Source: Hyphococcus sp. | GTDB lineage: Bacteria > Pseudomonadota > Alphaproteobacteria > Caulobacterales > Parvularculaceae | Assembly (NCBI GenBank): GCA_021776335.1 | Contig: JAJFGB010000001.1 | Coordinates: 301,431 to 365,430, forward strand | DNA: 64,000 nt | Direction: 5' to 3' | In this document: positions 6,686 to 44,144 of the stretch, in pieces | Position numbering within the stretch: position 1 is the stretch's first letter | Layout: every line of letters begins with the position of its first letter | Made by a program: the position numbers and the translations under genes | The notes under the pieces: model-generated | What the model was told of the DNA's origin: nothing | Database searches by the model: none | The model's input: only the letters and a program-made list of their open reading frames with translations

Positions 6686-6821
6686 GGTGTTGCCACCCGT
6701 CGATTCGACGCCATGACAAAATCATTTTGACCGATTTCGTTTGCGCACATGATGCGCTTCCAGGCGCACTTGGTACGTATGCAGAGGGCATTCATATAAG
6801 TTTTAGATAACGTTCAAATAT

Positions 6822-10570: not shown

Positions 10571-11866
10571 ATGTCCGCTTTCGAGTCCATTCATCAATCG
10601 GATCGCGCCGTAAAACGCATGACGAGGCGGCGTGGACAGGAACTGCGGTTTCGCCTGTTCGGTCTCGGTGCCGTCATTGCGGCAATGGTCGTCCTAGCGT
10701 GGCTGACCATAAGTCTTGTTGGCACAGGCTACACGGCGTTTTACCAGCACCACATGACGCTGGAGGTTTTTCTGGACGAAGCTGTCCTTGATCCGACCGG
10801 CGAGCGCAACGCGGAAAATTTACGGAAAGCCAACTTTCGCAAGATTATTCAAGAGGCGATCTATGCGCGCTTTCCTGAGGTCAGTGAGCGCCGTCAAAAA
10901 AGTGCATTGTTCAAGATTGTCTCTGCGTCTGGCGCGACCAATCAGGTGCGCCAAATGGCTTACGCCAATCCCGCGCTCGTTGGGCGGACATTGACGCTTT
11001 CTGTCCCGACATCTGATGACGTTGATCAGCTTCTGAAGGGGTATATCGATCGGGATGCTCCAGAAAAGCGCCGGAAAATATCCAATCAGCAGATTGTCTG
11101 GGTGGATGCGCTAAAGGCGACCGGTGAAATTAAATCGCAATTCAATTGGACCTTTTTTACCGGCGTTGACAGCCGGGACCCCGAACTTGCCGGCATCGCC
11201 GGCGCGGTGGTTGGCTCATTGATGGCGCTTGCCGTCGCCTTTGTTGTTTCAGTCCCGGCTGGTGTCGGCGCTGCTGTCTATCTTGAGGAGTTCGCGCCGC
11301 AAAACCGGTTTACGGATTTTATCGAAATCAACATCAACAACCTCGCCGCCGTGCCGTCGATTGTTTTCGGCCTTCTGGGGCTTGCAGTGTTCCTGAACTT
11401 TTTCGGGATGCCCCGCTCTGCGCCGCTGGTCGGCGGGCTGGTGCTGGCGCTGATGACCCTGCCGACAGTGATCATTGCGACGCGCGCTGCACTGCGCTCG
11501 GTCTCGCCATCAATCATCGACGGCGCCCTTAGTCTTGGGGCCTCCCATACGCAGGCCGTCTTTCATCACAAGGTTCCGCTGGCGGCGCCGGGCATATTGA
11601 CCGGCTCAATCATCGGCATGGCGCAGGCTCTCGGTGAAACGGCGCCGCTGTTGATGATCGGCATGGTGGCGTTTGTTACGGAAATTCCGTCAGGCCTTAC
11701 CGAACCCGCGTCGGCTCTGCCGGTGCAAATTTTTCTATGGTCAGACAGCGCAGAGCGCGCCTGGGCGGAGCGCACATCGGCAGCGATTATCGTTTTGTTG
11801 ATGGTGCTCGTGACGATGAATGCACTGGCAATATTTCTTCGAACGCGATTGGAGCGCAGATGGTGA
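10571..11866 (+). CDS. pstA: Phosphate ABC transporter permease
   Basis: [28 protein letters not shown] motifs. Confidence 0.96.
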
Positions 11867-31882: not shown

Positions 31883-32039
31883 ACGCATTATGCAATGGGC
31901 GCCATTGCAATCTGCAACTAAATCCGAGTTGCTTAATAAAGTTTTTACACCATATGCGCTAACTGTTGACGCTAACATATTGAATTATAACAAATTTTCA
32001 ATTTGCAACGCAGGCGGCGTTTAATGGCGCGCAAAATGA
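31883..32039 (+). promoter_or_regulatory. Sigma54-type promoter P1: LuxO-type enhancer pair, IHF-like site, -24/-12
   Basis: ACGCA-TTA-TGCAA 31883-31895; TTGCA-ATC-TGCAA 31905-31917; IHF-like ATTCAATATGTTA (minus strand, 31973-31985); TGGCGCG-CAAA-ATGA 32025-32039. Confidence 0.65.
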
Positions 32040-32071
32040 AACGGTCCTTAGCCAGTGGGTTGAGGAACGTT

Positions 32072-34909
32072 ATGCAACAGACGGTCAAAAGCGACGGCGA
32101 TCAGCAAAGGTCCTCAAGCGCCCAGATGTTGCGCGCAGGCCTGGGCGAGGCGCAGGAAGATCTTGGTCATCTTGCCCGTGTTGCGGCACAAGCACTGTCG
32201 GCGCCAAGCACATTCATAGCGTTGCTCGAAGACGATATTTTGCATTATGGCGCGCAGCACGGTGACGACGATCAAGACAACGATCGTGACAAGAAAATCT
32301 GCCAACGTATCCTTGGCGAGAATGATTTGTTTATCGTTTCAGACGCAACAACAAATACAGAGTTCTCATCCATTCTGGGACTTTCGAAACCGAACACCCG
32401 GTTCATTGCCGGCGCACCCATCGTCGGTGAAGACGGCTGCCGCGTTGGCGCAGTATGCGTTCTCGACACTGTGGTAAGGCCTGATCTAACCCCACAAAAG
32501 CTCAACGTTCTGTATTCCGTCGCCAAGCTTGCAGGGGAAGCGATGAGCAAGCGAAGCCTTAAGCAAAAAGGTGAGACAGCTTTTGCAATTCTGCAAAAAG
32601 CGCAAAAGCTAAGTCGAATTGCCCATTTCGTTTTTGACCCTGTTGGGTTCAAAACCATCAGTATTTCAAAGTCGCTTGGCATTTTTTATGATGGCGACGG
32701 TGAAACCGAGCGCGGCCTTGATTTTGGTGAATTTGTTGATCGCTTGCATCCAGACGATTCTGATCTTGTGCAGCACGCAATCGGAGAGGGCGTTAAGGGC
32801 GGGGCCGCAATCAATATCAAATTTCGTGTTGAATCGCACAAGGGCGCCTATCGAAATATCTGGTTGAATGCTGAGCCGCTTCAACTCGACAATTCGGCAG
32901 CTGCGCCATGGATCGGCATCATGCAGGACGTCACCGATCAGGTTCGAAAAGAACAAGACCTTAAGGAAAATATTGCATTTCGGCGCGCGGCGACCGACAC
33001 GGCGTTGGATTGCGTTATCACAATTGATGCAAGTGGAAAAATCAAGGCGTTCAACCCGGCCGCGGAGCAAATCTTTGGGTATGCAAGGCAAGATGTTGTC
33101 GGCGCTCCCCTGGCAGAAATAATAATCCCTGAAGAACTGCGCGGCGCCCATCTCGCCGGTATCAAGCGGTACCTTGAAACCGGAGAGCATAATGTGCTCG
33201 GCAAGCGCATTGAAGTTGAGGCTATTACAAAGTCCGGCGCCCGTTTGCCAATTGAATTGGCGATCACACCATTCGAGGTGAATGGCGAGAAACATTTTAC
33301 AGCATATCTGAGGGACATATCTGAACGTAAAGCTGCAGCAGTTGAGATCGAGGAATCGGCTGCTTGCCTCAAAACGGCGAAGGAAGAAGCTGAAGCAGCC
33401 AACGCCGCGAAGTCTGATTTCCTCGCGACGATCAGCCACGAAATACGCACGCCGTTAAACGGCATCATAGGCGGCCTCAGTCTCATTAAGGACGAGCTTG
33501 ATCGAACCGATCACCGAAGTCATGCCGAAGTTGCATATAACTCGGCGGAGACGTTACTGGTGTTGATCAATGACATACTAGATTTGTCAAAAATTGAAGC
33601 CGGAAAGCTGGAAATTGAAAACACGAATTTTGATCTTTATGAATGCATCAGAAGTGCGGCTGATCTTTTTAAAGCGAATGCGGATGAAAAAGGGCTTGAG
33701 TTTGCTGTTGAGATTCCGAACGATCTAACCCGATGGCGCGTTGGCGATTCGGGACGGATTCGCCAGGTACTTTTGAATTTTATCTCCAACGCTATCAAGT
33801 TTACCGATGCTGGAGGTGTTGTTCTGTCCGTATCAGAAATCAACAATGAACAAGTCGTGTTGAGCGTTGCCGATACAGGGATCGGCATCCAATCAAAATA
33901 TCAAGACAAGTTATTTACCAGCTTCCAACAGGTCGATGCATCATACAAGCGCCGGTTTTCCGGCAGCGGCCTTGGCCTCGCAATTTCCAGGCAACTTGCG
34001 GAGTTGATGGGCGGTGACATTCGTTTTTCAAGCGTAGAAAGCAAAGGGAGTACCTTTTCCATGACCCTTCCCCTTAAAATAGGCGCCGCTCAGGAAACAC
34101 CATACGCGCAGGAAATAGAGCCCGACCGGTTGAGGGGCAATATTCTCATCGCCGAAGACAGCGCAACCAACGCGCTGGTGGCGCGGGCGCTCCTTCGCTT
34201 GAAAGGCGCAAAAGTCGATCACGTTTCCAACGGCGCTGAAGCTGTGGCGGCCTGCCGCGTGCGGCCTTACGATTTGATTCTCATGGATCTGGCAATGCCG
34301 GAGATGGATGGCTTTGAAGCCACGCGGGAAATTCGCAGCTCCAACACCGCGAACAAGGAGACGCCAATTGTGGCGCTTACGGCCAATGTTTCGGAGGACG
34401 ATCGCAAGGAATGCATGAATGTCGGGATGAATGATCTCGTCGCGAAACCAATTAATCGACGGCAGTTTCTGAATACGGTCGCCGACTGGCTTGGGAATGA
34501 CGAAATCTGTGGGTCAGAAGAGGAGGCGGATTTCGATTCAATTACTGTCTTCGATCCAAACCGATTTGAGACTGAATGGCGTGACCTTCCGCTTTCGGCG
34601 CAGTTTGAAATCATCACGGTCTTTATGGACGAAACGAAAGCCCGACAGATGAAGATTGCGCGCGCGATGCTTAAACAGGACTGGCGCATAGCTGAAAATG
34701 AGGCGCACGCGCTCAAGAGTTCGGCCGGCAATATTGGCGCTGAACGCCTGCATCTGCTGGCCAAACGGATTGAAGCGCATTTGAAAGCAAGTGAACGAGA
34801 CGCTGCCGCGGCGCTCATTCTGCGCGTACCTGGCGTCTGTTCGGATACGATTGACAGTATCGAAAAGCAGCACGCCAGAATTGGCGAGAAGGCAAAGTCA
34901 AATGGGTAA
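32072..34909 (+). CDS. Cytoplasmic hybrid histidine kinase GAF-PAS-PAS-HisKA-HATPase-REC-Hpt
   Basis: GAF (RFIAGAPIV..GAVCVLD), PAS (RLHPDD), FixL-like PAS (FNPAAEQIFGY..AHLAGIKRYLETGE), FLATISHEIRTPLNG, DLILMDLAMPEMDG, Hpt AHALKSSAGNIGA; no TM; GAGGAA RBS before ATG 32072. Confidence 0.93.
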   Translation: MQQTVKSDGDQQRSSSAQMLRAGLGEAQEDLGHLARVAAQALSAPSTFIALLEDDILHYGAQHGDDDQDNDRDKKICQRILGENDLFIVSDATTNTEFSSILGLSKPNTRFIAGAPIVGEDGCRVGAVCVLDTVVRPDLTPQKLNVLYSVAKLAGEAMSKRSLKQKGETAFAILQKAQKLSRIAHFVFDPVGFKTISISKSLGIFYDGDGETERGLDFGEFVDRLHPDDSDLVQHAIGEGVKGGAAINIKFRVESHKGAYRNIWLNAEPLQLDNSAAAPWIGIMQDVTDQVRKEQDLKENIAFRRAATDTALDCVITIDASGKIKAFNPAAEQIFGYARQDVVGAPLAEIIIPEELRGAHLAGIKRYLETGEHNVLGKRIEVEAITKSGARLPIELAITPFEVNGEKHFTAYLRDISERKAAAVEIEESAACLKTAKEEAEAANAAKSDFLATISHEIRTPLNGIIGGLSLIKDELDRTDHRSHAEVAYNSAETLLVLINDILDLSKIEAGKLEIENTNFDLYECIRSAADLFKANADEKGLEFAVEIPNDLTRWRVGDSGRIRQVLLNFISNAIKFTDAGGVVLSVSEINNEQVVLSVADTGIGIQSKYQDKLFTSFQQVDASYKRRFSGSGLGLAISRQLAELMGGDIRFSSVESKGSTFSMTLPLKIGAAQETPYAQEIEPDRLRGNILIAEDSATNALVARALLRLKGAKVDHVSNGAEAVAACRVRPYDLILMDLAMPEMDGFEATREIRSSNTANKETPIVALTANVSEDDRKECMNVGMNDLVAKPINRRQFLNTVADWLGNDEICGSEEEADFDSITVFDPNRFETEWRDLPLSAQFEIITVFMDETKARQMKIARAMLKQDWRIAENEAHALKSSAGNIGAERLHLLAKRIEAHLKASERDAAAALILRVPGVCSDTIDSIEKQHARIGEKAKSNG

Positions 34910-36317
34910 ACCGAAGGCAAAAGTCCTCGTTGTTGAAGACAGCCCGTCACTCGCTCGTACATATACGGCCCAGCTTGAACACAGCGGATATGAAACAAGC
35001 ATCGCTGATACGGGCGCCAAGGCGCGCGCGATTGTCCAGGAGTTTGACTGTGTTCTGCTCGACCTTGGGCTTCCTGACGAAGACGGACTTGACATTTTAA
35101 CGGATTGGAACGCGGCGGAGCGGCCCGTGATCGTGATTACCGGGAATGGATCGATCAACACTGCCGTTGATGCAATGCAGTGCGGCGCCGTCGACTTTCT
35201 CGTCAAGCCTTTCCAGAGTGAACGGCTGATCACAACCGTTGCCAACGCAATTGAGAAAAGTCGCTTAAGCCAAATAGTGAATACATATGAAAGCAAGATC
35301 GACCGAAAATCATTTGGCGGTTTCGTCGGCGACACACTTGAAATGCAGGCGGTTTATCAAACATTGGAAAGCGCTGCGAGCAGCAAAGCGACCGCTTTCA
35401 TCATTGGTGAGAGCGGCGTTGGTAAGGAACTTGCGGCGCGCGCGGTACATGATTACAGCCCCCGTGCGGGTAAGCCATTTGTGGCGCTCAATTGCGGCGC
35501 GATTCCGCGAGATCTGCTTGAGAGCGAGTTATTCGGACATATCAAGGGCGCATTTACAGGCGCTACGTCGGATCGGGAGGGGGCGGCGGCGCGCGCGAAT
35601 GGCGGCACATTGTTTCTGGATGAAATCACCGAGATGGATATCTCGCTGCAACCAAAGCTTCTGCGTTTTCTGCAGCTTGGCAGTTTTCAAAAAGTCGGTG
35701 GCGACAAAACGATCGAAACTGACATTCGAATTGTGGCGGCGACAAATAGAACGCCCCTTGAATGTGTGCGTTTGGGTTTATTGCGAGAGGATCTCTATTA
35801 TCGGTTGAATGTGTTGCCGATTGAGTTGCCGCCTCTCCGGGACCACGCTGGAGATATCGCAAAGATCGCGTCTGAATTCCTGGTCGAATATGCCAATGAA
35901 GAGGGGAAGAATTTCTCGGAGTTCACAAACACGGCAATCGAAGCGCTTCAACAACATGACTGGCCAGGCAATGTTCGGGAACTACAAAATGTCATCAGAC
36001 AAATCGTTGTCCTGAATGATGGCCCTGTCGTGCAGCCGTCCATGGTGATATCGTTGTTAATGGACAAGGTATCGACGGCAGGACGCCTGTTACCAGCAGC
36101 AACGGATATTGAGCCCATAAGCAGCGCATCGGCTGGGTTTTCAAATCGCGAGTTTGAACTGAAACCACTTTGGCAGATCGAGCTTGACGCGATTGACGAC
36201 GCGATAGCGCGTTGTGACGGAAATATTCAAAAAGCCTCCCGATTGTTGGACATCAGTCCATCGACAATCTACCGCAAACGCGAGCGCGCCAGAGGGCGAT
36301 CTTCTGACGTTGCGTGA
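34902..36317 (+). CDS. LuxO-like sigma54-dependent response regulator (REC-AAA+-Fis HTH)
   Basis: LLDLGLPD receiver, ESAASSKA, GESGVGKE, ESELFGHIKGAFTGA, WPGNVRELQN, PLWQIE..AI..CDGNI..LDISPSTIYRK; overlaps the kinase stop codon. Confidence 0.93.
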   Translation: MGKPKAKVLVVEDSPSLARTYTAQLEHSGYETSIADTGAKARAIVQEFDCVLLDLGLPDEDGLDILTDWNAAERPVIVITGNGSINTAVDAMQCGAVDFLVKPFQSERLITTVANAIEKSRLSQIVNTYESKIDRKSFGGFVGDTLEMQAVYQTLESAASSKATAFIIGESGVGKELAARAVHDYSPRAGKPFVALNCGAIPRDLLESELFGHIKGAFTGATSDREGAAARANGGTLFLDEITEMDISLQPKLLRFLQLGSFQKVGGDKTIETDIRIVAATNRTPLECVRLGLLREDLYYRLNVLPIELPPLRDHAGDIAKIASEFLVEYANEEGKNFSEFTNTAIEALQQHDWPGNVRELQNVIRQIVVLNDGPVVQPSMVISLLMDKVSTAGRLLPAATDIEPISSASAGFSNREFELKPLWQIELDAIDDAIARCDGNIQKASRLLDISPSTIYRKRERARGRSSDVA

Positions 36318-36350
36318 CATAAGCTAACACTCTCTGACAACACTCGAATC

Positions 36351-36383
36351 GCGCGCCTCCTGGTGAGGCTGCGCGCTTTTTTT
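36351..36383 (+). terminator. Rho-independent terminator after the activator gene
   Basis: GCGCGCCTC-CTGGT-GAGGC(T)GCGC stem followed by T7. Confidence 0.75.
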
Positions 36384-36412
36384 GGCAGTGCTAACGACAT
36401 TTGCACCGTGTA

Positions 36413-36545
36413 CTGCAAATTGCATCGGTTGCGTTGCATATTGCTTCGCCTGCCATGGCTGCAACGGCTGTTATGCAATCGCTGCAACCATAACCGATTG
36501 ATCTAATTGTATATATTTCCGTTCGCGTAATGGCTCGGTCTTTGA
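36413..36545 (+). promoter_or_regulatory. Sigma54-type promoter P2 upstream of sqdB
   Basis: CTGCA-AAT-TGCAT 36413-36425; TTGCA-TAT-TGCTT 36434-36446; IHF-like GATCAATCGGTTA (minus strand, 36491-36503); TGGCTCG-GTCT-TTGA 36531-36545. Confidence 0.7.
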
Positions 36546-36611
36546 GTGTCTTTGCGCATTGGAAGCGCCGCCATCGGATGCTGCGCACAGTTTGGAACAG
36601 GAGTATCATTC

Positions 36612-37823
36612 GTGGAAAAGAAAATTGTTATCCTCGGCGGAGATGGATTTTGCGGCTGGCCTACAGCGCTCCATCTTTCAGCTAAAGACTATAACGTCAC
36701 CATTGTTGACAATCTTTCGAGGCGCTTGATTGACGTTGAGCTCGGCGCTTCAAGCTTGACGCCGATCAAGTCGACCGAACGGCGGCTCGAGGCCTGGACG
36801 CGCATTACCGGCCGGCAGATTAACTTCGAGAAAATCGACGCTGCAAAAGACTATGAAGCGCTGAAGTCGCTGCTCAATCGTGTACGTCCCGATACAGTCA
36901 TTCATTTCGCAGAGCAGCGCGCAGCGCCCTATTCGATGAAAAGCGCCACCCACAAGACCTACACTGTAGATAATAATATCGGTGCGACACACAACTTGCT
37001 GTCAATTCTCTCTGAACTCGAACTGGATACTCATGTCGTTCATCTGGGGACCATGGGTGTTTATGGTTATGATGATGCTGGTCTCGAGATTCCGGAAGGG
37101 TATTTACCAGTTCAGATAAAAACTGAAACCGGCGAATTTATTTCCCGAGAAGTGCTTTACCCGACAGATCCCGGCAGCGTCTATCATATGACGAAGTCCA
37201 TGGATCAGCTTCTTTTTCAGTTTTACGCCAAGAATGACGGCATTCGCGTCACAGATCTTCACCAGGGCATCGTTTGGGGGACGCAGACCGAAGAAACACG
37301 GCTGTCGGAATCACTGATTAATCGATTTGACTATGACGGCGATTACGGCACGGTCCTGAACCGTTTTTTGATGCAAGCTGCAGTCGGTCATCCGCTTACC
37401 GTACACGGCACCGGAGGCCAAACACGTGCCTTCATCCATATACAAGACACCGTTCGGTGTATTGCGCTTGCGGTGGAAAACCCGCCGGCGCGCGGCGCGC
37501 GCGTAAAAATTCTCAATCAAATAACCGAATGCCATCGCGTTCGCGATCTGGCGAGCATTGTTTCGAAGGTGACAGGTGCGAAGGTCGCGTTTGTCGATAA
37601 TCCACGTAAAGAAGCCGATGAGAATGATCTGCGCGTTTCAAATGCCACCTTCATCGACCTCGGACTGAAACCAACCACCCTTGAAAATGGATTGCTTGCG
37701 GAAACCATGGATATCGCCGTGAAGTACGCGCTGCGCCACGATCCCGCAATGATCCCTTGCGTTTCCACCTGGACCTCAACGCAGCGCCCTGGCGAAGTTA
37801 AAGAACGCCAAGCGATCGCTTAA
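36612..37823 (+). CDS. sqdB: UDP-sulfoquinovose synthase
   Basis: GGDGFCGWPTALHLS, HFAEQRAAPYSMKS, LGTMGVYG, YHMTKSMD, RFDYDGDYGTVLNRF, HGTGGQTRAFIHI, all diagnostic of alphaproteobacterial SqdB; AGGAG RBS before GTG 36612. Confidence 0.95.
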   Translation: MEKKIVILGGDGFCGWPTALHLSAKDYNVTIVDNLSRRLIDVELGASSLTPIKSTERRLEAWTRITGRQINFEKIDAAKDYEALKSLLNRVRPDTVIHFAEQRAAPYSMKSATHKTYTVDNNIGATHNLLSILSELELDTHVVHLGTMGVYGYDDAGLEIPEGYLPVQIKTETGEFISREVLYPTDPGSVYHMTKSMDQLLFQFYAKNDGIRVTDLHQGIVWGTQTEETRLSESLINRFDYDGDYGTVLNRFLMQAAVGHPLTVHGTGGQTRAFIHIQDTVRCIALAVENPPARGARVKILNQITECHRVRDLASIVSKVTGAKVAFVDNPRKEADENDLRVSNATFIDLGLKPTTLENGLLAETMDIAVKYALRHDPAMIPCVSTWTSTQRPGEVKERQAIA

Positions 37824-37844
37824 GGAAAACGGAGGTTTATCACC

Positions 37845-39569
37845 ATGCGTCTCATGATCATTGGCATAACCGCACTTGGATTAGCGGCTCTTGCCATGAT
37901 CATTGCGGATGGCCGGCTGTTTAACTCGCTCGGCTTCGCCTCCCTTTGGGGGGGCGATGTCCGGCAAGTGCGGTTTGCTAATGATGCATGGGCGCCGAGG
38001 CAAAAGCGCGACACAATTGTGATCCCGGTGGCGCATGGACAATGGAAGACGATGTCGGGTTTTCCGTCCTATGCGTCCTTTGTGTTCCCGCTGACACAAC
38101 ACACGCAGATTGAGGCGGGCGCCTTTGTTCTGGAATTTTCATTGCAGCTACCCTCGTCGGGTGGCGGCGCGATGCGGGTGATGATCAACAATGAAAAACG
38201 GGCGGAGCTGCTATTTGAACGGGATCGGACGCGTTACCGAATAACTGTTGAACTGACGGATGCGGATTTAAAAAAAGGGGAGCTGTTTGTAGCGCTGTCG
38301 GCGGACGGATATGGGGCCGGTGGGGAATGTCCCGATGATCGTTCGCGGATCGCGATCATCGAAATCAAGCCGAACACCAGGGTCGAGTTGCGTCTGGCGG
38401 CGCCAATCAGTCACCCGGCAGATGCGGCAATACTGGCTGGCGATCCGATCCGTTTGTTGATGTCGGACGATAATATGCAGCTGCATCGCGAACGAACACT
38501 CGCCCTCGCGCTGAGGCTTGAACAAAAAGGCAGACGGGTTGAATTCGTGGCAAAGGACGCAGTTCGCAACCGGATTTCTATTCGCATCGACCCGAAAACC
38601 AACAAACCACGATTTGACCGTCGCATGAATGAAGTCGTCATGTCTGGACCTCGCGATGCCGCTTTGCTGCGCCCAGCCAATGTCAGCTCGAGCGCCGGCC
38701 CAAATTTCGGCAAGGACGATATTTTGTATGTTGAAGCGCTTGGTGCGGCTGTTCATACGCGCCAGTTTCGCCGCGAAATAAAATGGCGGATCGACTTTGA
38801 CCTAAAGGACATGCCTGACGGTGCGGCGCCGACACAGCTAAACCTGAAGCTTTTTCGTTCAGCCCTGGGCGAAGATCATGCAGGCCTTTTGTCGATCAGC
38901 TTTAATGGCGGTTTGCTTCATAGTGCGAGCAACATCGGGATTTCTAATCCGCTCAGTAAAAAAATCACTCTTCCGCAGAGTGAAATGCGGCTTGAAAATG
39001 CGCTTGAGATTTCAATCCTCACCAACGAAGACCGCATAGGTATTTGCAACCCAGGTCGCGACGCTTTTGCTCAATTATTAAAACCGACAGCGCTTACGCG
39101 ATTTCGGCCCCCTCAGGATATGCGTGCGGAGTCATTGCCTCATCGACTTAGACGGATCGGGCATGTGCAGATCTCAGCGCCTTTCGGGATGCAGAGCTCA
39201 GCCTATCGGGAGAGCATATCGCTTCTGGCGCGCATCACGCCGCCCACAATTAAACTGACAAGCAGCGAAAGACTGGTGCAAGGGCCGACAGTCCGAGCGA
39301 CGATTATTCCACTGCAAGAATTTCGCACTGAGATCGGCAAGTATCTACCACCGCCCGCCGCAATAAGAGCGGCAGGCGGTGATTACAGGCCTGATCAGGC
39401 GCCAATCATATGGGTTGGTGTGGATGCGAGCGCATTGGGATTTGCGGATCCGGCGCAGCAATATGCGCGATTAACGCGGGCATCTGCGAACAAGATTTTG
39501 AATTCAGATCGCAACGGCGTTGCAATCATCTTTGAGCTTCCGGCTATTGACGAGATAGGCGCGTCATGA
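37845..39569 (+). CDS. BcsB-like periplasmic polysaccharide co-polymerase subunit
   Basis: N-terminal hydrophobic anchor; two repeats resembling BcsB carbohydrate-binding modules (F.FPL..F.LEFS..MRVMINN..C.DD..IEIKPNTRVEL and IDFDL..LNLKL..LSISFNGGLL..LP..EN.LEI..C..AQLL). Confidence 0.6.
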   Translation: MRLMIIGITALGLAALAMIIADGRLFNSLGFASLWGGDVRQVRFANDAWAPRQKRDTIVIPVAHGQWKTMSGFPSYASFVFPLTQHTQIEAGAFVLEFSLQLPSSGGGAMRVMINNEKRAELLFERDRTRYRITVELTDADLKKGELFVALSADGYGAGGECPDDRSRIAIIEIKPNTRVELRLAAPISHPADAAILAGDPIRLLMSDDNMQLHRERTLALALRLEQKGRRVEFVAKDAVRNRISIRIDPKTNKPRFDRRMNEVVMSGPRDAALLRPANVSSSAGPNFGKDDILYVEALGAAVHTRQFRREIKWRIDFDLKDMPDGAAPTQLNLKLFRSALGEDHAGLLSISFNGGLLHSASNIGISNPLSKKITLPQSEMRLENALEISILTNEDRIGICNPGRDAFAQLLKPTALTRFRPPQDMRAESLPHRLRRIGHVQISAPFGMQSSAYRESISLLARITPPTIKLTSSERLVQGPTVRATIIPLQEFRTEIGKYLPPPAAIRAAGGDYRPDQAPIIWVGVDASALGFADPAQQYARLTRASANKILNSDRNGVAIIFELPAIDEIGAS

Positions 39570-42325
39570 CCGATGCCGTTGCAACGGAAACAAGGTCTCA
39601 AAATGAATTTCTTTGCGTTGACAGCGCACCGAAACAATATGCCTCTTTAATCCCGATATGGCGTGCGCCGGCGGCGTGTGCGCTATTTCTGGTTATTGGT
39701 TTCGCAGCGATATTTATCGTCAACCAGATCCCATTCCTGAATGCCGCTTTCCCTGATGATGATTTTATCTTCTCGCCATATACAGGCAGCCATTCCATAC
39801 CCATCCGGCTGTTTATTGTCACCTTCAGTGCATCGTTTTGCTGCTTCTGCAATGGCGACCTCAAAAACAAAACCCTGCTGTTTGCCGATATCGTGTTCAC
39901 CTATGCGCTCTACTGCGCGGTGTTCGACCTCATCAACATTATTGTTTATGAGACGTTGCAGGTTCGATATCAGCTAAGCTTCATTGAGATCGTTAGCGGA
40001 TTACTCGGTTTTTGGGTTTTCTCATTGAAACTCCTCCGGCGCGGGCGCATGCCGCCAAAGATTGAAGTCCCTTACAAGCCACAGCGAACATTTTCAACGA
40101 TCGTTCGGCTCGTGGGCGGCGCTGTCGCGGCCGGATTATTTTCGTTTTGGATCGCATCGCTTGATTTGGCGATTGTTCAGGACCTTCGAAATTTTGCACT
40201 GCTGGGCGGGATTGGTCCTGGCGTATTTCTCTTTTTGCCAGTGTTGTTTCTAATCTGGTTTGTTTTAGCGACCTATGACCGGCTGACCATGAAAGTGGGC
40301 GACTTTACGCCTCCGCTGACATTTGTTGTTCCTGCCCACAACGAAGAATACATCATCGCTGATACAATCTTCGCGATGGATGAGGCTGCCTGTAATTACA
40401 ACGGCAATGTGATCATTCTCATCATGAATAACAATTCCGACGACCGAACAAGTGAGGTCGCCGAGGCTGCGCTGGCAAAATGCAAGGCGGCGACAGGAAA
40501 AGTGATCGACGTCCCGAAGCCAGGAAAATCGAATGCGCTAAACGCAGGTCTTGCTGCAGCCGAAACCGAATTTTTCGTGCGCGTTGACGCCGATACATTG
40601 ATTGCGCCGGATTCAATCCACCGCGCCATGCGATATTTCTATGACCCTAAAGTCGGCGTGGTCGGCGGATTGCCTATACCGCCAGGCGGGGCGCTTTTCG
40701 ACAATGCGCGATTCCTCGAGGTGATTGTAAAACACGGTTATTACTCGGTTGCGCTCGGTGCGATCAATGGCGTTGTTGGCGTGCCGGGCATGTTAGCGCT
40801 CTATCGCACCGAGCTCCCAAGGCAGCTTGGTGGATTTGTTGAAGGCATGAACGGTGAGGACACCGACATGTCGTTGCGCATCGGCGAGATGGGATATGAG
40901 GTCGTCGTTGATCCAAAGGTGACCTACATCTCCGAAGTGCCTGCGAGTTACAAGCATATGCGTGAACAACGCATGCGCTGGTTCCGCTCAATCTATCATA
41001 TCTCAAGCAGGAATGGGGATTATCTCGACCGGTCATGGCTGACGATCAGGGGAAAGATTATTTTACCCTATATGCTCGTCAATTCAGCTCGCCGCGCCAT
41101 GCTCACCCCGCTCGTTATGTTTGGCGCCATCGAATATGTGACCAGTTTTAATTCAGCGAACACACTGGAGTGGCAAGCGATCTTAGCGGTGCTCATCGGG
41201 GCGCCAGCAATTGTTGCGGTTTTTGCTTCGCTGATAAACGGCTATCCGAAAGGCATTCTGGCGCTTCCAGATTATTTGGTGTTTCGCGCGATCCGCGCTT
41301 ACCTGACGTTAGAATCGCTTCTCAGCATTATCATTGCGCCGGACCCGGAAACCGTTGCGCGCGCGCAAGTAGTGCGACGTAAAAGGAAGGTATGGATTGC
41401 TCGCGCCCGGGCGGGGTTCGCCGGCGCTGTGCTTTCTGTTGCCGCTATCTTTAACGCGAACGCGAACGATCCAGGCCTTTTAGTTGAGGCGACAATGGGC
41501 GCTCAACGGCAGGGCCTGATCGTCGAGGAAGATGACGTCAAGGCGAGCGGCCTTGCCGTTGGCGTCTTTGCTGACGCATCACTGATTTATGACCAAAGGC
41601 TCAGAAAAAAGGACTTCGTGAAGGTTAAAAGTAACCTGAGGAAGGATATTTATCCGGATCGCTCTGGGTTAGACACGATACACTATCGTGGTGAGCTGCA
41701 ATATCGGCGACAATTGAGTAAAAAATGCAGTTGCTGGTTACAAGCGACAATGCGCTACGACCAAAAAAAACGCGATGGTGAGTTTCTCTTTCGACGGGAG
41801 GCGGCGCAAGTTAAGCTGTGGCGCCGGCACAACAAACAACATAACGGGTTCATACAGCTGGGTGCGAGCAACCTTGACTACAACGACGCACGCCTCGCAG
41901 GGTTTGATCAGCGAAGATACAGAATAGATGTTGGCCATCAATGGCGGCCGGCAGACTCACGGCTTCGATTGAATGGGGTGATCTTTGCGGAACACTCCGA
42001 TGCTGACGCGGCTCGGTTTGATTTTCAATCTCTTGGCGCACAGTTACGCGCAGAGAGGCAATTTGCTAGCTCAGCGACGAAAATGCATGTTGCGCTGTTT
42101 TGGCGTGAACGTCGCTATGAAGGTGTATTCAGTCGAGATTTTCCAATGTCGCGGAGCGATAGGGCGCTAAGAGCGTCGGTCGGCCTTTCACATCCAGTCA
42201 GGAAAAGACTTACCGTGACGGGGGCATTGGGCTGGGAACAAAATCGCTCCAATATTCCCATTCGGCGGCATCAGGGCTTAACGTTTCGGATCACGCTTAG
42301 CGCCAAATTGCCGATCCTGGATTGA
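39566..42325 (+). CDS. Processive GT2 polysaccharide synthase fused to an outer-membrane beta-barrel
   Basis: About six N-terminal TMs; VPAHNEE, KSNALNAG, DADT, GEDTD and QRMRW (D,D,D,QxxRW); further TMs; internal signal-peptide-like segment; C-terminal region of about 290 aa with amphipathic beta-strand pattern. ATGA overlap with the upstream gene. Confidence 0.85.
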   Translation: MTDAVATETRSQNEFLCVDSAPKQYASLIPIWRAPAACALFLVIGFAAIFIVNQIPFLNAAFPDDDFIFSPYTGSHSIPIRLFIVTFSASFCCFCNGDLKNKTLLFADIVFTYALYCAVFDLINIIVYETLQVRYQLSFIEIVSGLLGFWVFSLKLLRRGRMPPKIEVPYKPQRTFSTIVRLVGGAVAAGLFSFWIASLDLAIVQDLRNFALLGGIGPGVFLFLPVLFLIWFVLATYDRLTMKVGDFTPPLTFVVPAHNEEYIIADTIFAMDEAACNYNGNVIILIMNNNSDDRTSEVAEAALAKCKAATGKVIDVPKPGKSNALNAGLAAAETEFFVRVDADTLIAPDSIHRAMRYFYDPKVGVVGGLPIPPGGALFDNARFLEVIVKHGYYSVALGAINGVVGVPGMLALYRTELPRQLGGFVEGMNGEDTDMSLRIGEMGYEVVVDPKVTYISEVPASYKHMREQRMRWFRSIYHISSRNGDYLDRSWLTIRGKIILPYMLVNSARRAMLTPLVMFGAIEYVTSFNSANTLEWQAILAVLIGAPAIVAVFASLINGYPKGILALPDYLVFRAIRAYLTLESLLSIIIAPDPETVARAQVVRRKRKVWIARARAGFAGAVLSVAAIFNANANDPGLLVEATMGAQRQGLIVEEDDVKASGLAVGVFADASLIYDQRLRKKDFVKVKSNLRKDIYPDRSGLDTIHYRGELQYRRQLSKKCSCWLQATMRYDQKKRDGEFLFRREAAQVKLWRRHNKQHNGFIQLGASNLDYNDARLAGFDQRRYRIDVGHQWRPADSRLRLNGVIFAEHSDADAARFDFQSLGAQLRAERQFASSATKMHVALFWRERRYEGVFSRDFPMSRSDRALRASVGLSHPVRKRLTVTGALGWEQNRSNIPIRRHQGLTFRITLSAKLPILD

Positions 42326-42336
42326 TTAACGCAATG

Positions 42337-42486
42337 CCTCAAATTGCGCGCATTCTCTCACATTGCTCTTGCATATTGCGGCAGTTAGCCGGCCATCAAA
42401 ACTCGTGAACCGAACACTGCGCCAATATATTGTTTTTGCTTACTCTTTTGCGACCGCGGGGCTGCGCAGGATGGCCTGGCTTTTGA
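42337..42486 (+). promoter_or_regulatory. Sigma54-type promoter P3 upstream of GT2-cysH
   Basis: CCTCA-AAT-TGCGC 42337-42349; TTGCA-TAT-TGCGG 42369-42381 (11-mer TTGCATATTGC identical to P2); IHF-like AAACAATATATTG (minus strand, 42423-42435); TGGCCTG-GCTT-TTGA 42472-42486. Confidence 0.65.
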
Positions 42487-42514
42487 AGCTCTTGAGGGGA
42501 GAGAAAGGTCGAAC

Positions 42515-43447
42515 ATGCCAGATAAAATGCAAAAACGAAAAGGCGGCCGTTTTGGTTTCCGCAATATACGACCGCGGGCGCGATCATGCTCAGCATACGA
42601 CGTCAGTGTGATCATTCCTTATCATAACGCATCGCGGACAATCCGCCGCGCGGTCGCCTCCATTGTTTTTCAACGTCACGTCAGATGCGAGATTGTTATT
42701 ATCAATGACGGCTCGTCTCTTGAAGAGACCGCGAAGCTGTCGTCGCTTCGTGGAAAGCGGAATATTCGCGTTGTTGATGTGCTTCATCGCGGCGCTGCCG
42801 CTGCACGCAATTTGGGCGCAGAGCTCACCCGGTCCGCCGTCATCGCTTTCCTTGATGCGGATGATGAGATTCCCGCACGCGCGTTTACCAGAAAGATCAA
42901 GAAATTAAACAGCAATCCGGATATCGGCCTCGTTTTTGGACGAACGCGCATTTGCGTTAATACACAAAAACCGACTGATGAAATTACGCCATTTCAGTCT
43001 TCGCTTACACTTGAGGAAGTGCTCGGTTCATTTCCCGTGCTGACAGCGTCAAATATGCTTGTTCGCCGAGCGGCGTTTGAGGATATCGGAGGCTTCGACG
43101 AAGGATTACGTGACGCCAGCGATCAAGAGTGGACTGCTCGGCTTTGCTCGCATGAAAAATGGGACGCTGCCGGCGTTAAAAGCGTGACGGTCCGGAAATT
43201 TGTCGGCCGTTCGTCGCTCTGGGCGAATCCTGATGCGATGGAACAGGCGTGGCGCCAGGTTCTCGCTTCACATATGGCAAAGGGAAACCAACTGGAGGAC
43301 GGGGAAGCGGCGCGAATTTCGGACCTGTTTTATCAGCGCCTCGCCAGTTACGCCGGGCGCTATGTCAATGTCCATAACAAATCGCGCTTCTTTGAACTGA
43401 TCCAAATCTGGAGGGGGCAGCGTGATGCAATTGCATACAGCTCATAG
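42515..43447 (+). CDS. Soluble GT2 glycosyltransferase
   Basis: VSVIIPYHNA, IVIINDGSS, GAAAARNLG, IAFLDADD, GGFDEGL..SD. Confidence 0.9.
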   Translation: MPDKMQKRKGGRFGFRNIRPRARSCSAYDVSVIIPYHNASRTIRRAVASIVFQRHVRCEIVIINDGSSLEETAKLSSLRGKRNIRVVDVLHRGAAAARNLGAELTRSAVIAFLDADDEIPARAFTRKIKKLNSNPDIGLVFGRTRICVNTQKPTDEITPFQSSLTLEEVLGSFPVLTASNMLVRRAAFEDIGGFDEGLRDASDQEWTARLCSHEKWDAAGVKSVTVRKFVGRSSLWANPDAMEQAWRQVLASHMAKGNQLEDGEAARISDLFYQRLASYAGRYVNVHNKSRFFELIQIWRGQRDAIAYSS

Positions 43448-44144
43448 TCCGTCGGGTTTTCATGCGGCGCAACCGATTGTTGATTTGCTGAATGTTGAGC
43501 ACGAAAATGTGCGCGCAGAATGCATTCTCCGAAATGCCCTTGATCTTTTCAGCGGCGAAATCGTTCTGGTGTCATCTTTCGGGGCCGATGCGGCTGTGCT
43601 CCTTCATATGCTCGCAGAATTTGACAAGGATATACCAGTCATTTTCCTGGATACCGGACGTCACTTTGAAAAAACACTTCACTACCGCCAGACCCTGGCG
43701 CACCAGCTCGGCCTTCGCAATGTTCGATCGTCTCTCCCGAATCGACTTGCACTGGCCGAGCTGGACCCGGACGGCAGCCTGCATCAGCTGGACCCAGACG
43801 CGTGTTGCGCCATTCGAAAAAAGGCCGTCTTGAAAAGCGCATTATCGCCATTCAGCGCATGGATATCGGGCCGAAAACGTTACCAGACGGCGGCCCGGCA
43901 AAATATCCGCATATTCGAGTGCGACAATGAAATGCGTATCAAACTAAGCCCTCTTGCTGATTGGTCAGAGCAAGATATTGAGCACTACTATGAAGCGCAC
44001 AAATTGCCGCGACATCCGCTATGGGCGGAAGGCTATCGGTCGATCGGATGCGCGCCATGCACGTCGCCAACCATTCAGGGAGAAGATGCACGCGATGGCC
44101 GCTGGAGCGCCCGCGGCAAAACTGAATGCGGAATTCATTTGTGA
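43425..44144 (+). CDS. cysH: APS/PAPS reductase, Fe-S (APS-reductase) type
   Basis: SSFGADAAVLLHM, FLDTGRHF, CCAIRK, SIGCAPCT, RDGRW, KTECGIH; overlaps the GT2 stop. Confidence 0.93.
   Translation: MQLHTAHSPSGFHAAQPIVDLLNVEHENVRAECILRNALDLFSGEIVLVSSFGADAAVLLHMLAEFDKDIPVIFLDTGRHFEKTLHYRQTLAHQLGLRNVRSSLPNRLALAELDPDGSLHQLDPDACCAIRKKAVLKSALSPFSAWISGRKRYQTAARQNIRIFECDNEMRIKLSPLADWSEQDIEHYYEAHKLPRHPLWAEGYRSIGCAPCTSPTIQGEDARDGRWSARGKTECGIHL

Follow-up and report, generated by a model that had tools for sequence, protein, structure and literature searches.

Candidate sigma-54 promoters with a conserved A at position −12 in a rare gene cassette of Hyphococcus sp.

A 64,000-nucleotide (nt) stretch of the Hyphococcus sp. 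genome (assembly GCA_021776335.1, contig JAJFGB010000001.1, positions 301,431 to 365,430; hereafter the window) contains three sequences that resemble sigma-54 promoters and carry A instead of C at position −12. Sites 2 and 3 are likely to be sigma-54 promoters of a self-contained, rare gene cassette, site 1 is probably one as well, and the A at −12 is likely to be a cis-encoded feature of this regulon that is under purifying selection. All three cores were found as the original prediction had described them, on the + strand, with GG-N10 spacing and GA at −13/−12 (the numbering follows the GG-N10-GA core). Site 1 (TGGCGCG-CAAA-ATGA, TGGCGCGCAAAATGA, 32025–32039) overlaps an in-frame ATG at 32024 and would be the probable core promoter of a kinase/activator operon. 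Alignment of orthologues points to site 2 (TGGCTCG-GTCT-TTGA, TGGCTCGGTCTTTGA, 36531–36545) as the core promoter of an operon encoding sqdB-like, BcsB-like and glycosyltransferase family 2 (GT2) proteins, and to site 3 (TGGCCTG-GCTT-TTGA, TGGCCTGGCTTTTGA, 42472–42486) as that of a GT2/cysH operon. That sigma-54 is used, where transcription starts and what the A does are inferred from these sequences.

The GC at −13/−12 is among the most constant features of sigma-54 promoters and anchors the fork junction that keeps the polymerase silent until an ATPase acts, and its role has been studied mostly via laboratory mutants. A natural regulon with A in place of C would be a ready-made test of whether the −12 base sets leakiness, threshold or the insulation between activators, with an internal comparison in the canonical sites of this sigma factor ahead of other genes of the cell. 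Genome scans that demand GC at −12 would miss the whole regulon.

Conservation and layout of the three promoters

The canonical sigma-54 promoter reads YTGGCACG-N4-TTGCW (PMC3352281 and PMC4551910, citing Barrios et al. 1999). Sites 1–3 all have the GG within TGGC at −24/−25 and, at GG-N10 spacing, the T-preceded G at −13; at −12 all three have A where the consensus has C, and site 1 also has A for T at −15 (ATGA). The bare motif is not enriched: the window contains 11 copies of TGGC-N7-WTGA, a count attained by 7 of 100 shuffles (expectation 6.69 ± 2.64), and across the genome TGGC-N7-TTGA is found no more often ahead of genes than in other positions. We therefore set motif enrichment aside as evidence in either direction, both for TGGC-N7-WTGA in the window and for TGGC-N7-TTG[ACGT] by location across the genome, since the counts are at or near background, and the case rests on placement and phylogenetic footprinting. 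As to placement, each site lies 17–55 nt from the start of the following operon, with clusters of LuxO-type boxes upstream, and a simple scan detected no sigma-70-type promoter on the + strand in any of the three upstream regions.

The footprint sample comprised 11 loci for the promoter of the sqdB-like gene, seven downstream promoters and 8 loci for site 1, drawn from about seven lineages. Over these 26 orthologous promoter instances the −12 base is A in 25 and T in one, and C in none (0/26). When nine loci of the sqdB-like promoter were aligned, the invariant columns of the core were TGGC, C(−21) and TTGA; the remaining invariant columns were four positions of a site resembling that of integration host factor (IHF) and one T between this IHF-like site and the core. 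The spacer and flanks of these promoters have diverged while the core was kept, and the same promoter likewise reads TGGC-N7-TTGA in L016 and L018. Alignment of the seven promoters located 3′ of the large GT2 gene revealed invariant TGGC, G(−20), TTG and A(−11), with A at −12 in 6/7 and T in the remaining one (TTGT, ahead of a reductase gene in L013). The seven include two extra promoters, one in L013 and one in L007, that precede other genes; each has TTGA. At site 1, five loci have TGGCGCGCAAAATGA as the core and three have TGGCACGCAAAATGA.

The claim that GA reflects selection and not decay, for which a lack of GA conservation in orthologous promoters had been named as the refuting outcome, looks borne out: GA is conserved among the orthologues, with C absent from −12 and spacers and flanks diverged, and the −12 A thus looks to be kept by selection. 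Two properties of the sample count against this conclusion. The 26 instances cannot be counted as separate events, because the loci, from about seven lineages, may share one ancestral cassette, and the T in the L013 promoter indicates that position −12 tolerates some change.

The regions upstream of the cores share a common layout, in which LuxO-type boxes are followed by an IHF-like site and then by the core. The LuxO box is TTGCA-N3-TGCAA (PMC3352281, PMC10328515), and we counted boxes at ≤2 mismatches; clusters of our first guess at the enhancer motif, TGCAA-N-TTGCA, missed the locus, and it was replaced by the LuxO box. Seven of the 39 boxes in the window are concentrated in approximately 540 nt, namely the three short upstream regions, where the clusters lie 90–140 bp upstream of the cores in the position of upstream activator sequences. 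Perfect boxes are present in orthologues as well.

Upstream of the kinase operon, the distal boxes (31883–31917, + strand), a candidate enhancer, include the perfect box TTGCAATCTGCAA at 31905–31917, one of only three perfect boxes in the 4.18-Mb genome, and orthologues have equivalent clusters. They are followed by the IHF-like site TAACATATTGAAT (31973–31985, − strand), which matches YAANNNNTTGATW at 12 of 13 positions and lies 45 nt ahead of the TGGC of site 1; by hand count the same 45-nt spacing is found in L003, L005, L006 and L008. A proximal box with one mismatch, TTTCAATTTGCAA (31996–32008, + strand), is kept in 8/8 orthologous kinase upstream regions, is perfect (TTGCAATTTGCAA) in the L009/L010/L013 group, and is possibly an autoregulatory operator. 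The candidate enhancer of the sqdB-like operon (36401–36489, + strand) contains three boxes with ≤2 mismatches and is the densest TGCAA/TTGCA cluster genome-wide, with 7 pentamers in 90 nt, as well as the only intergenic region with at least five. Its IHF-like site, TAACCGATTGATC (36491–36503, − strand), matches the consensus at 12 of 13 positions, and the AA and TG columns are invariant in nine orthologues. Upstream of the GT2/cysH operon the boxes are weaker (42330–42381, + strand) and are clearer in orthologues; here the IHF-like site CAATATATTGTTT (42423–42435, − strand), again a 12/13 match, lies 42 nt ahead of TGGC, and its TG columns are invariant in seven promoters. Taken by itself, the match to the consensus suggests that IHF may bind all three candidate sites.

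Site 1 and the start of the kinase gene

Judged by its sequence context, site 1 is probably a sigma-54 promoter, and several observations at the start of the kinase gene weigh against this assignment. The core overlaps the in-frame ATG 32024 of the kinase open reading frame, and the peptide M-A-R-K-M-K alone would yield TGGCNCG...ATGA. Moreover, the 48 nt from ATG 32024 to ATG 32072 align in 8 loci without gaps or stops and with some synonymous-looking changes, gene callers picked ATG 32024 in the closer orthologues, and the CAAA spacer of site 1 does not vary, whereas those of sites 2 and 3 do. These observations would be explained if site 1 were merely the first five codons of the kinase (M-A-R-K-M), with TGGCNCG-N4-ATGA arising by chance and the operon promoter lying unrecognised further upstream, a reading that is possible and deserves to be taken seriously, although we do not favour it.

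What speaks for the promoter is, first, the behaviour of the second start codon. ATG 32072 is conserved together with its Shine-Dalgarno (SD) sequence GAGGAA, and gene callers disagree on the kinase start among orthologues; in the L009/L010/L013 group there is no SD before the first ATG and a perfect GAGGGA before the second, which the callers picked. In L006 the amino acids between the two start codons are altered (LR to PG) while the purine SD is retained. Second, the 16 ‘codons’ from the first ATG to the second are more conserved than the next 12, and codons 2–16 are rare, placing them by score in the bottom 3% of coding windows. Third, the interval between the enhancer/IHF-like site and the kinase gene contains no other GG-N10-G(C/A) and no sigma-70 promoter, and the 45 nt that separate the IHF-like site from TGGC are close to the 42 nt at site 3. 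A promoter at site 1 may also coexist with translation from ATG 32024 on another transcript.

The sigma factor and the role of the −12 base

In the mechanism we propose, a hybrid kinase would act through a LuxO-like activator that, once phosphorylated, would bind the TTGCA-N3-TGCAA boxes 90–140 bp upstream and reach the E-sigma54 holoenzyme by way of an IHF-like bend, and ATP hydrolysis by the activator would open the promoter. Of sigma-54 promoters, 96% have C at −12, a base that helps to restrain basal transcription, and those with activator bypass deviate from the consensus there (PMC4551910); the fork junction forms directly downstream of the GC (PMC5095919). Because the C checks basal transcription and the fork junction forms beside the GC, an A:T pair at −12 could loosen the lock. 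By analogy, the −12 A probably weakens either the fork-junction lock formed by Region I and the helix-turn-helix (HTH) or the closed complex, and a fork junction tuned in this way would agree with the published work on the −12 C (PMC4551910).

The two outcomes are not mutually exclusive. A loosened lock would allow slight activator-independent basal transcription, needed to start a self-activating operon. A weaker closed complex would make activation strictly dependent on the cognate enhancer and IHF, and this strict dependence would insulate the cassette from the five other activators of the host. The A may accordingly render the promoters either leakier or more stringent, and this ambiguity of direction detracts from the case for a selected regulon feature.

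More specifically, the A may have been selected as a ‘loosened lock’ whose small activator-independent basal activity seeds a positive-feedback loop, the cassette then working with the RpoN of any host that acquires it. No sigma-70 promoter is detectable for the kinase/activator operon, which seems to rely on its own product. We offer this version tentatively and regard it as doubtful; if true, it would represent a natural, regulon-wide use of fork-junction silencing as a tuning knob.

It is unlikely that the sites are real sigma-54 promoters in which GA is only a tolerated founder state without a tuning role, strong enhancers and IHF compensating for it. All loci share cassette ancestry, and the promoter that drifted to TTGT attests to some tolerance, as this account would have it. 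However, spacer and flank columns have been randomised at the same divergence at which A(−12) persists in 11/11 and 6/7 promoters, GC-rich lineages included, and the optimal C was never regained in about seven lineages with two to three promoters. CcrM methylation (GANTC) and an overlapping sigma-70 −35 element, considered as causes of the −12 A, were dismissed on inspection of the sequence.

It is very unlikely that the motifs are chance matches, or sites of another sigma factor or DNA-binding protein. The bare motif does occur at chance frequency, and the next-best intergenic GA-type match after site 2, at C11:74027, is an extracytoplasmic function (ECF)-type promoter (GAAC-N17-CGTA) ahead of an ECF sigma gene. 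Nevertheless, the invariant columns coincide exactly with the positions that sigma-54 contacts at −24 and −12, at fixed GG-N10 spacing, and the cassette encodes a GAFTGA activator whose type of binding box lies upstream.

A further possibility is that the sigma factor itself has changed. The genome, which is 99.5% complete, has a single rpoN (C8:66214–66690, the single Sigma54_DBD match); the HTH (HESTVSRVT) and RpoN box (ARRTVAKYRE) of the encoded protein match those of E. coli sigma-54. The genome encodes six sigma-54 activators. Canonical TGGC-N7-TTGC sites are located upstream of the flagellar genes flgF (TGGCACGTCGATTGCG), flgK (TGGCGCACCCATTGCA) and fliK (TGGCCCGCCGCTTGCG), and the flgF site, our positive control for footprinting, reads TGGCAC-N5-TTGCG in five congeneric genomes. 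A genome-wide search with a position weight matrix (PWM) built from the GA promoters yielded no further convincing site. The single canonical rpoN, the flagellar TTGC sites and the absence of further GA sites by PWM together indicate that GA is cassette-specific and cis-encoded. The specialised RpoN paralogue suggested by the original prediction, or an altered RpoN that reads GA at −12, found no support and is exceedingly unlikely given one rpoN with canonical DNA-binding motifs and canonical flagellar sites in the same genome.

The cassette, related systems and other sites in the genome

The seven-gene cassette (31883–44144) is encoded on the + strand. A hybrid sensor histidine kinase with the architecture GAF-PAS-HisKA-HATPase-REC-Hpt (start 32072 or 32024, end 34909) is followed by a LuxO-like sigma-54 activator (34902–36317), an NtrC-class response regulator (REC-AAA+-HTH_8) with Sigma54_activat and HTH_8 domains and an intact GAFTGA motif. 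LuxO is its best match both in the PDB (5EP0, E=6.6e-120) and among NCBIfam families (NF041946), the latter at 522.9 bits against a cut-off of 800; we therefore call it LuxO-like and do not assign it to the equivalog. The next operon (36612–42325) comprises a short-chain dehydrogenase/reductase resembling UDP-sulfoquinovose synthase (sqdB-like, 36612–37823), the BcsB-like protein (37845–39569) and a 919-residue GT2 synthase (39566–42325). The last operon encodes a small GT2 (42515–43447) and a CysH-type (phospho)adenylylsulfate ((P)APS) reductase (43422–44144). The product of the cassette would be a synthase-type, probably sulfonated exopolysaccharide. Between the activator gene and the sqdB-like operon lies a terminator-like GC hairpin followed by U7 (36351–36383, + strand); a simple terminator scan passed over it, and its minimum free energy of −19.6 kcal/mol corresponds to an unremarkable z-score of only −1.1.

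The BcsB-like family is very rare, with 13 clusters among 5.8 billion proteins, and the protein is absent from the 40 related genomes searched; 24 of these are congeneric, and none of the 24 has the cassette. The whole cassette recurs syntenically on metagenomic contigs and on two Caulobacterales contigs from metagenome-assembled genomes (MAGs), with BcsB-like identity of 39–56%. In a GTDB genome scan the two Caulobacterales MAGs were the only named genomes with the cassette, the metagenomic contigs otherwise carrying no taxonomy, and a scan of Joint Genome Institute (JGI) metagenomes added no further orthologues. The cassette has the appearance of an uncommon accessory module that moves horizontally. 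The kinase and activator genes of L014 are found downstream, on the other strand. Relatives also have extra promoters of the same type, ahead of a 798-residue protein in L013 and of a 250-residue protein in L007; the extra and variant promoters are located at 11070–11090 and 11996–12010 in L013 and at 6816–6830 in L007.

The cassette promoters share with canonical sigma-54 promoters the TGGC at −24, a T-tract and G at −14/−13, the GG-N10 spacing, an enhancer approximately 90–140 bp upstream with an intervening IHF-like site, and a cognate GAFTGA activator. They differ in the base at −12, which is C in canonical promoters and A at the three window sites and in all orthologues but one. The Vibrio LuxO/qrr system offers a parallel in its regulator: it, too, has a LuxO-type activator, LuxO boxes (compare the V. 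cholerae sites ttgcaatttgcaa and ttgcaaaatgcaa from chromatin immunoprecipitation, PMC10328515) and a box close to the regulator’s own gene. According to PMC3352281, the qrr promoters have the consensus TTGCW. Vibrio LuxO targets the Qrr small RNAs, whereas the cassette promoters lie directly ahead of protein-coding polysaccharide operons, and no Rfam family, Qrr included, reaches its gathering score in the window. Unlike in Vibrio, moreover, the activator falls below the LuxO equivalog cut-off (523 versus 800 bits) and the kinase combines all modules in one hybrid protein that includes an Hpt domain.

As for natural and engineered deviations at −12, the glnAp2 mutants of the Gralla laboratory are said to include engineered −12 variants with activator bypass. 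These mutants and the E. coli promoters with bypass (PMC4551910) resemble the cassette in having lost the consensus −12 C. However, the bypass variants are laboratory mutants or scattered promoters, while the base in the cassette, known here from sequence, is conserved regulon-wide across diverged hosts. The nifH, Pu and glnHp2 promoters are weak, IHF-dependent sigma-54 promoters that depend strictly on their cognate enhancer, and like the cassette promoters they combine a non-optimal −12 region with an IHF site and several activator sites. Their GC is intact and the deviation lies in the adjacent T-tract, whereas the cassette promoters have lost the C. Non-GC sigma-54 promoters occur individually, as rare exceptions. 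A search for ‘GG-N10-GA’ in the collection of papers available to the analysis found nothing, and we are aware of no account of a GA that is conserved phylogenetically throughout a regulon.

Outside the cassette, several candidates were rejected. The sequence TAATGGCGCGAAAAATGAATGA at C3:391671, in an 800-bp intergenic region, is close to site 1 (TAATGGCGCGCAAAATGAAACG) but lacks LuxO-type boxes, and C1:579952, C6:2587 and C3:457439 are without supporting context. The two other perfect boxes of the genome, at C8:356719 and 356757 (TTGCATTTTGCAA and TTGCAAAATGCAA), were judged unrelated: they form a 51-bp palindromic operator (C8:356719–356769) between divergent genes, with no −24/−12 motif, and this is probably the operator of an unrelated repressor. 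Finally, a canonical sigma-54-like sequence, TGGCCCGTAACTTGCT, is located at C10:858687, 53 nt upstream of the gene for a PAPS_reduct-domain protein resembling CysD; if this site is real, sigma-54 would control sulfate activation in the very genome that carries a putative sulfonated-polysaccharide cassette.

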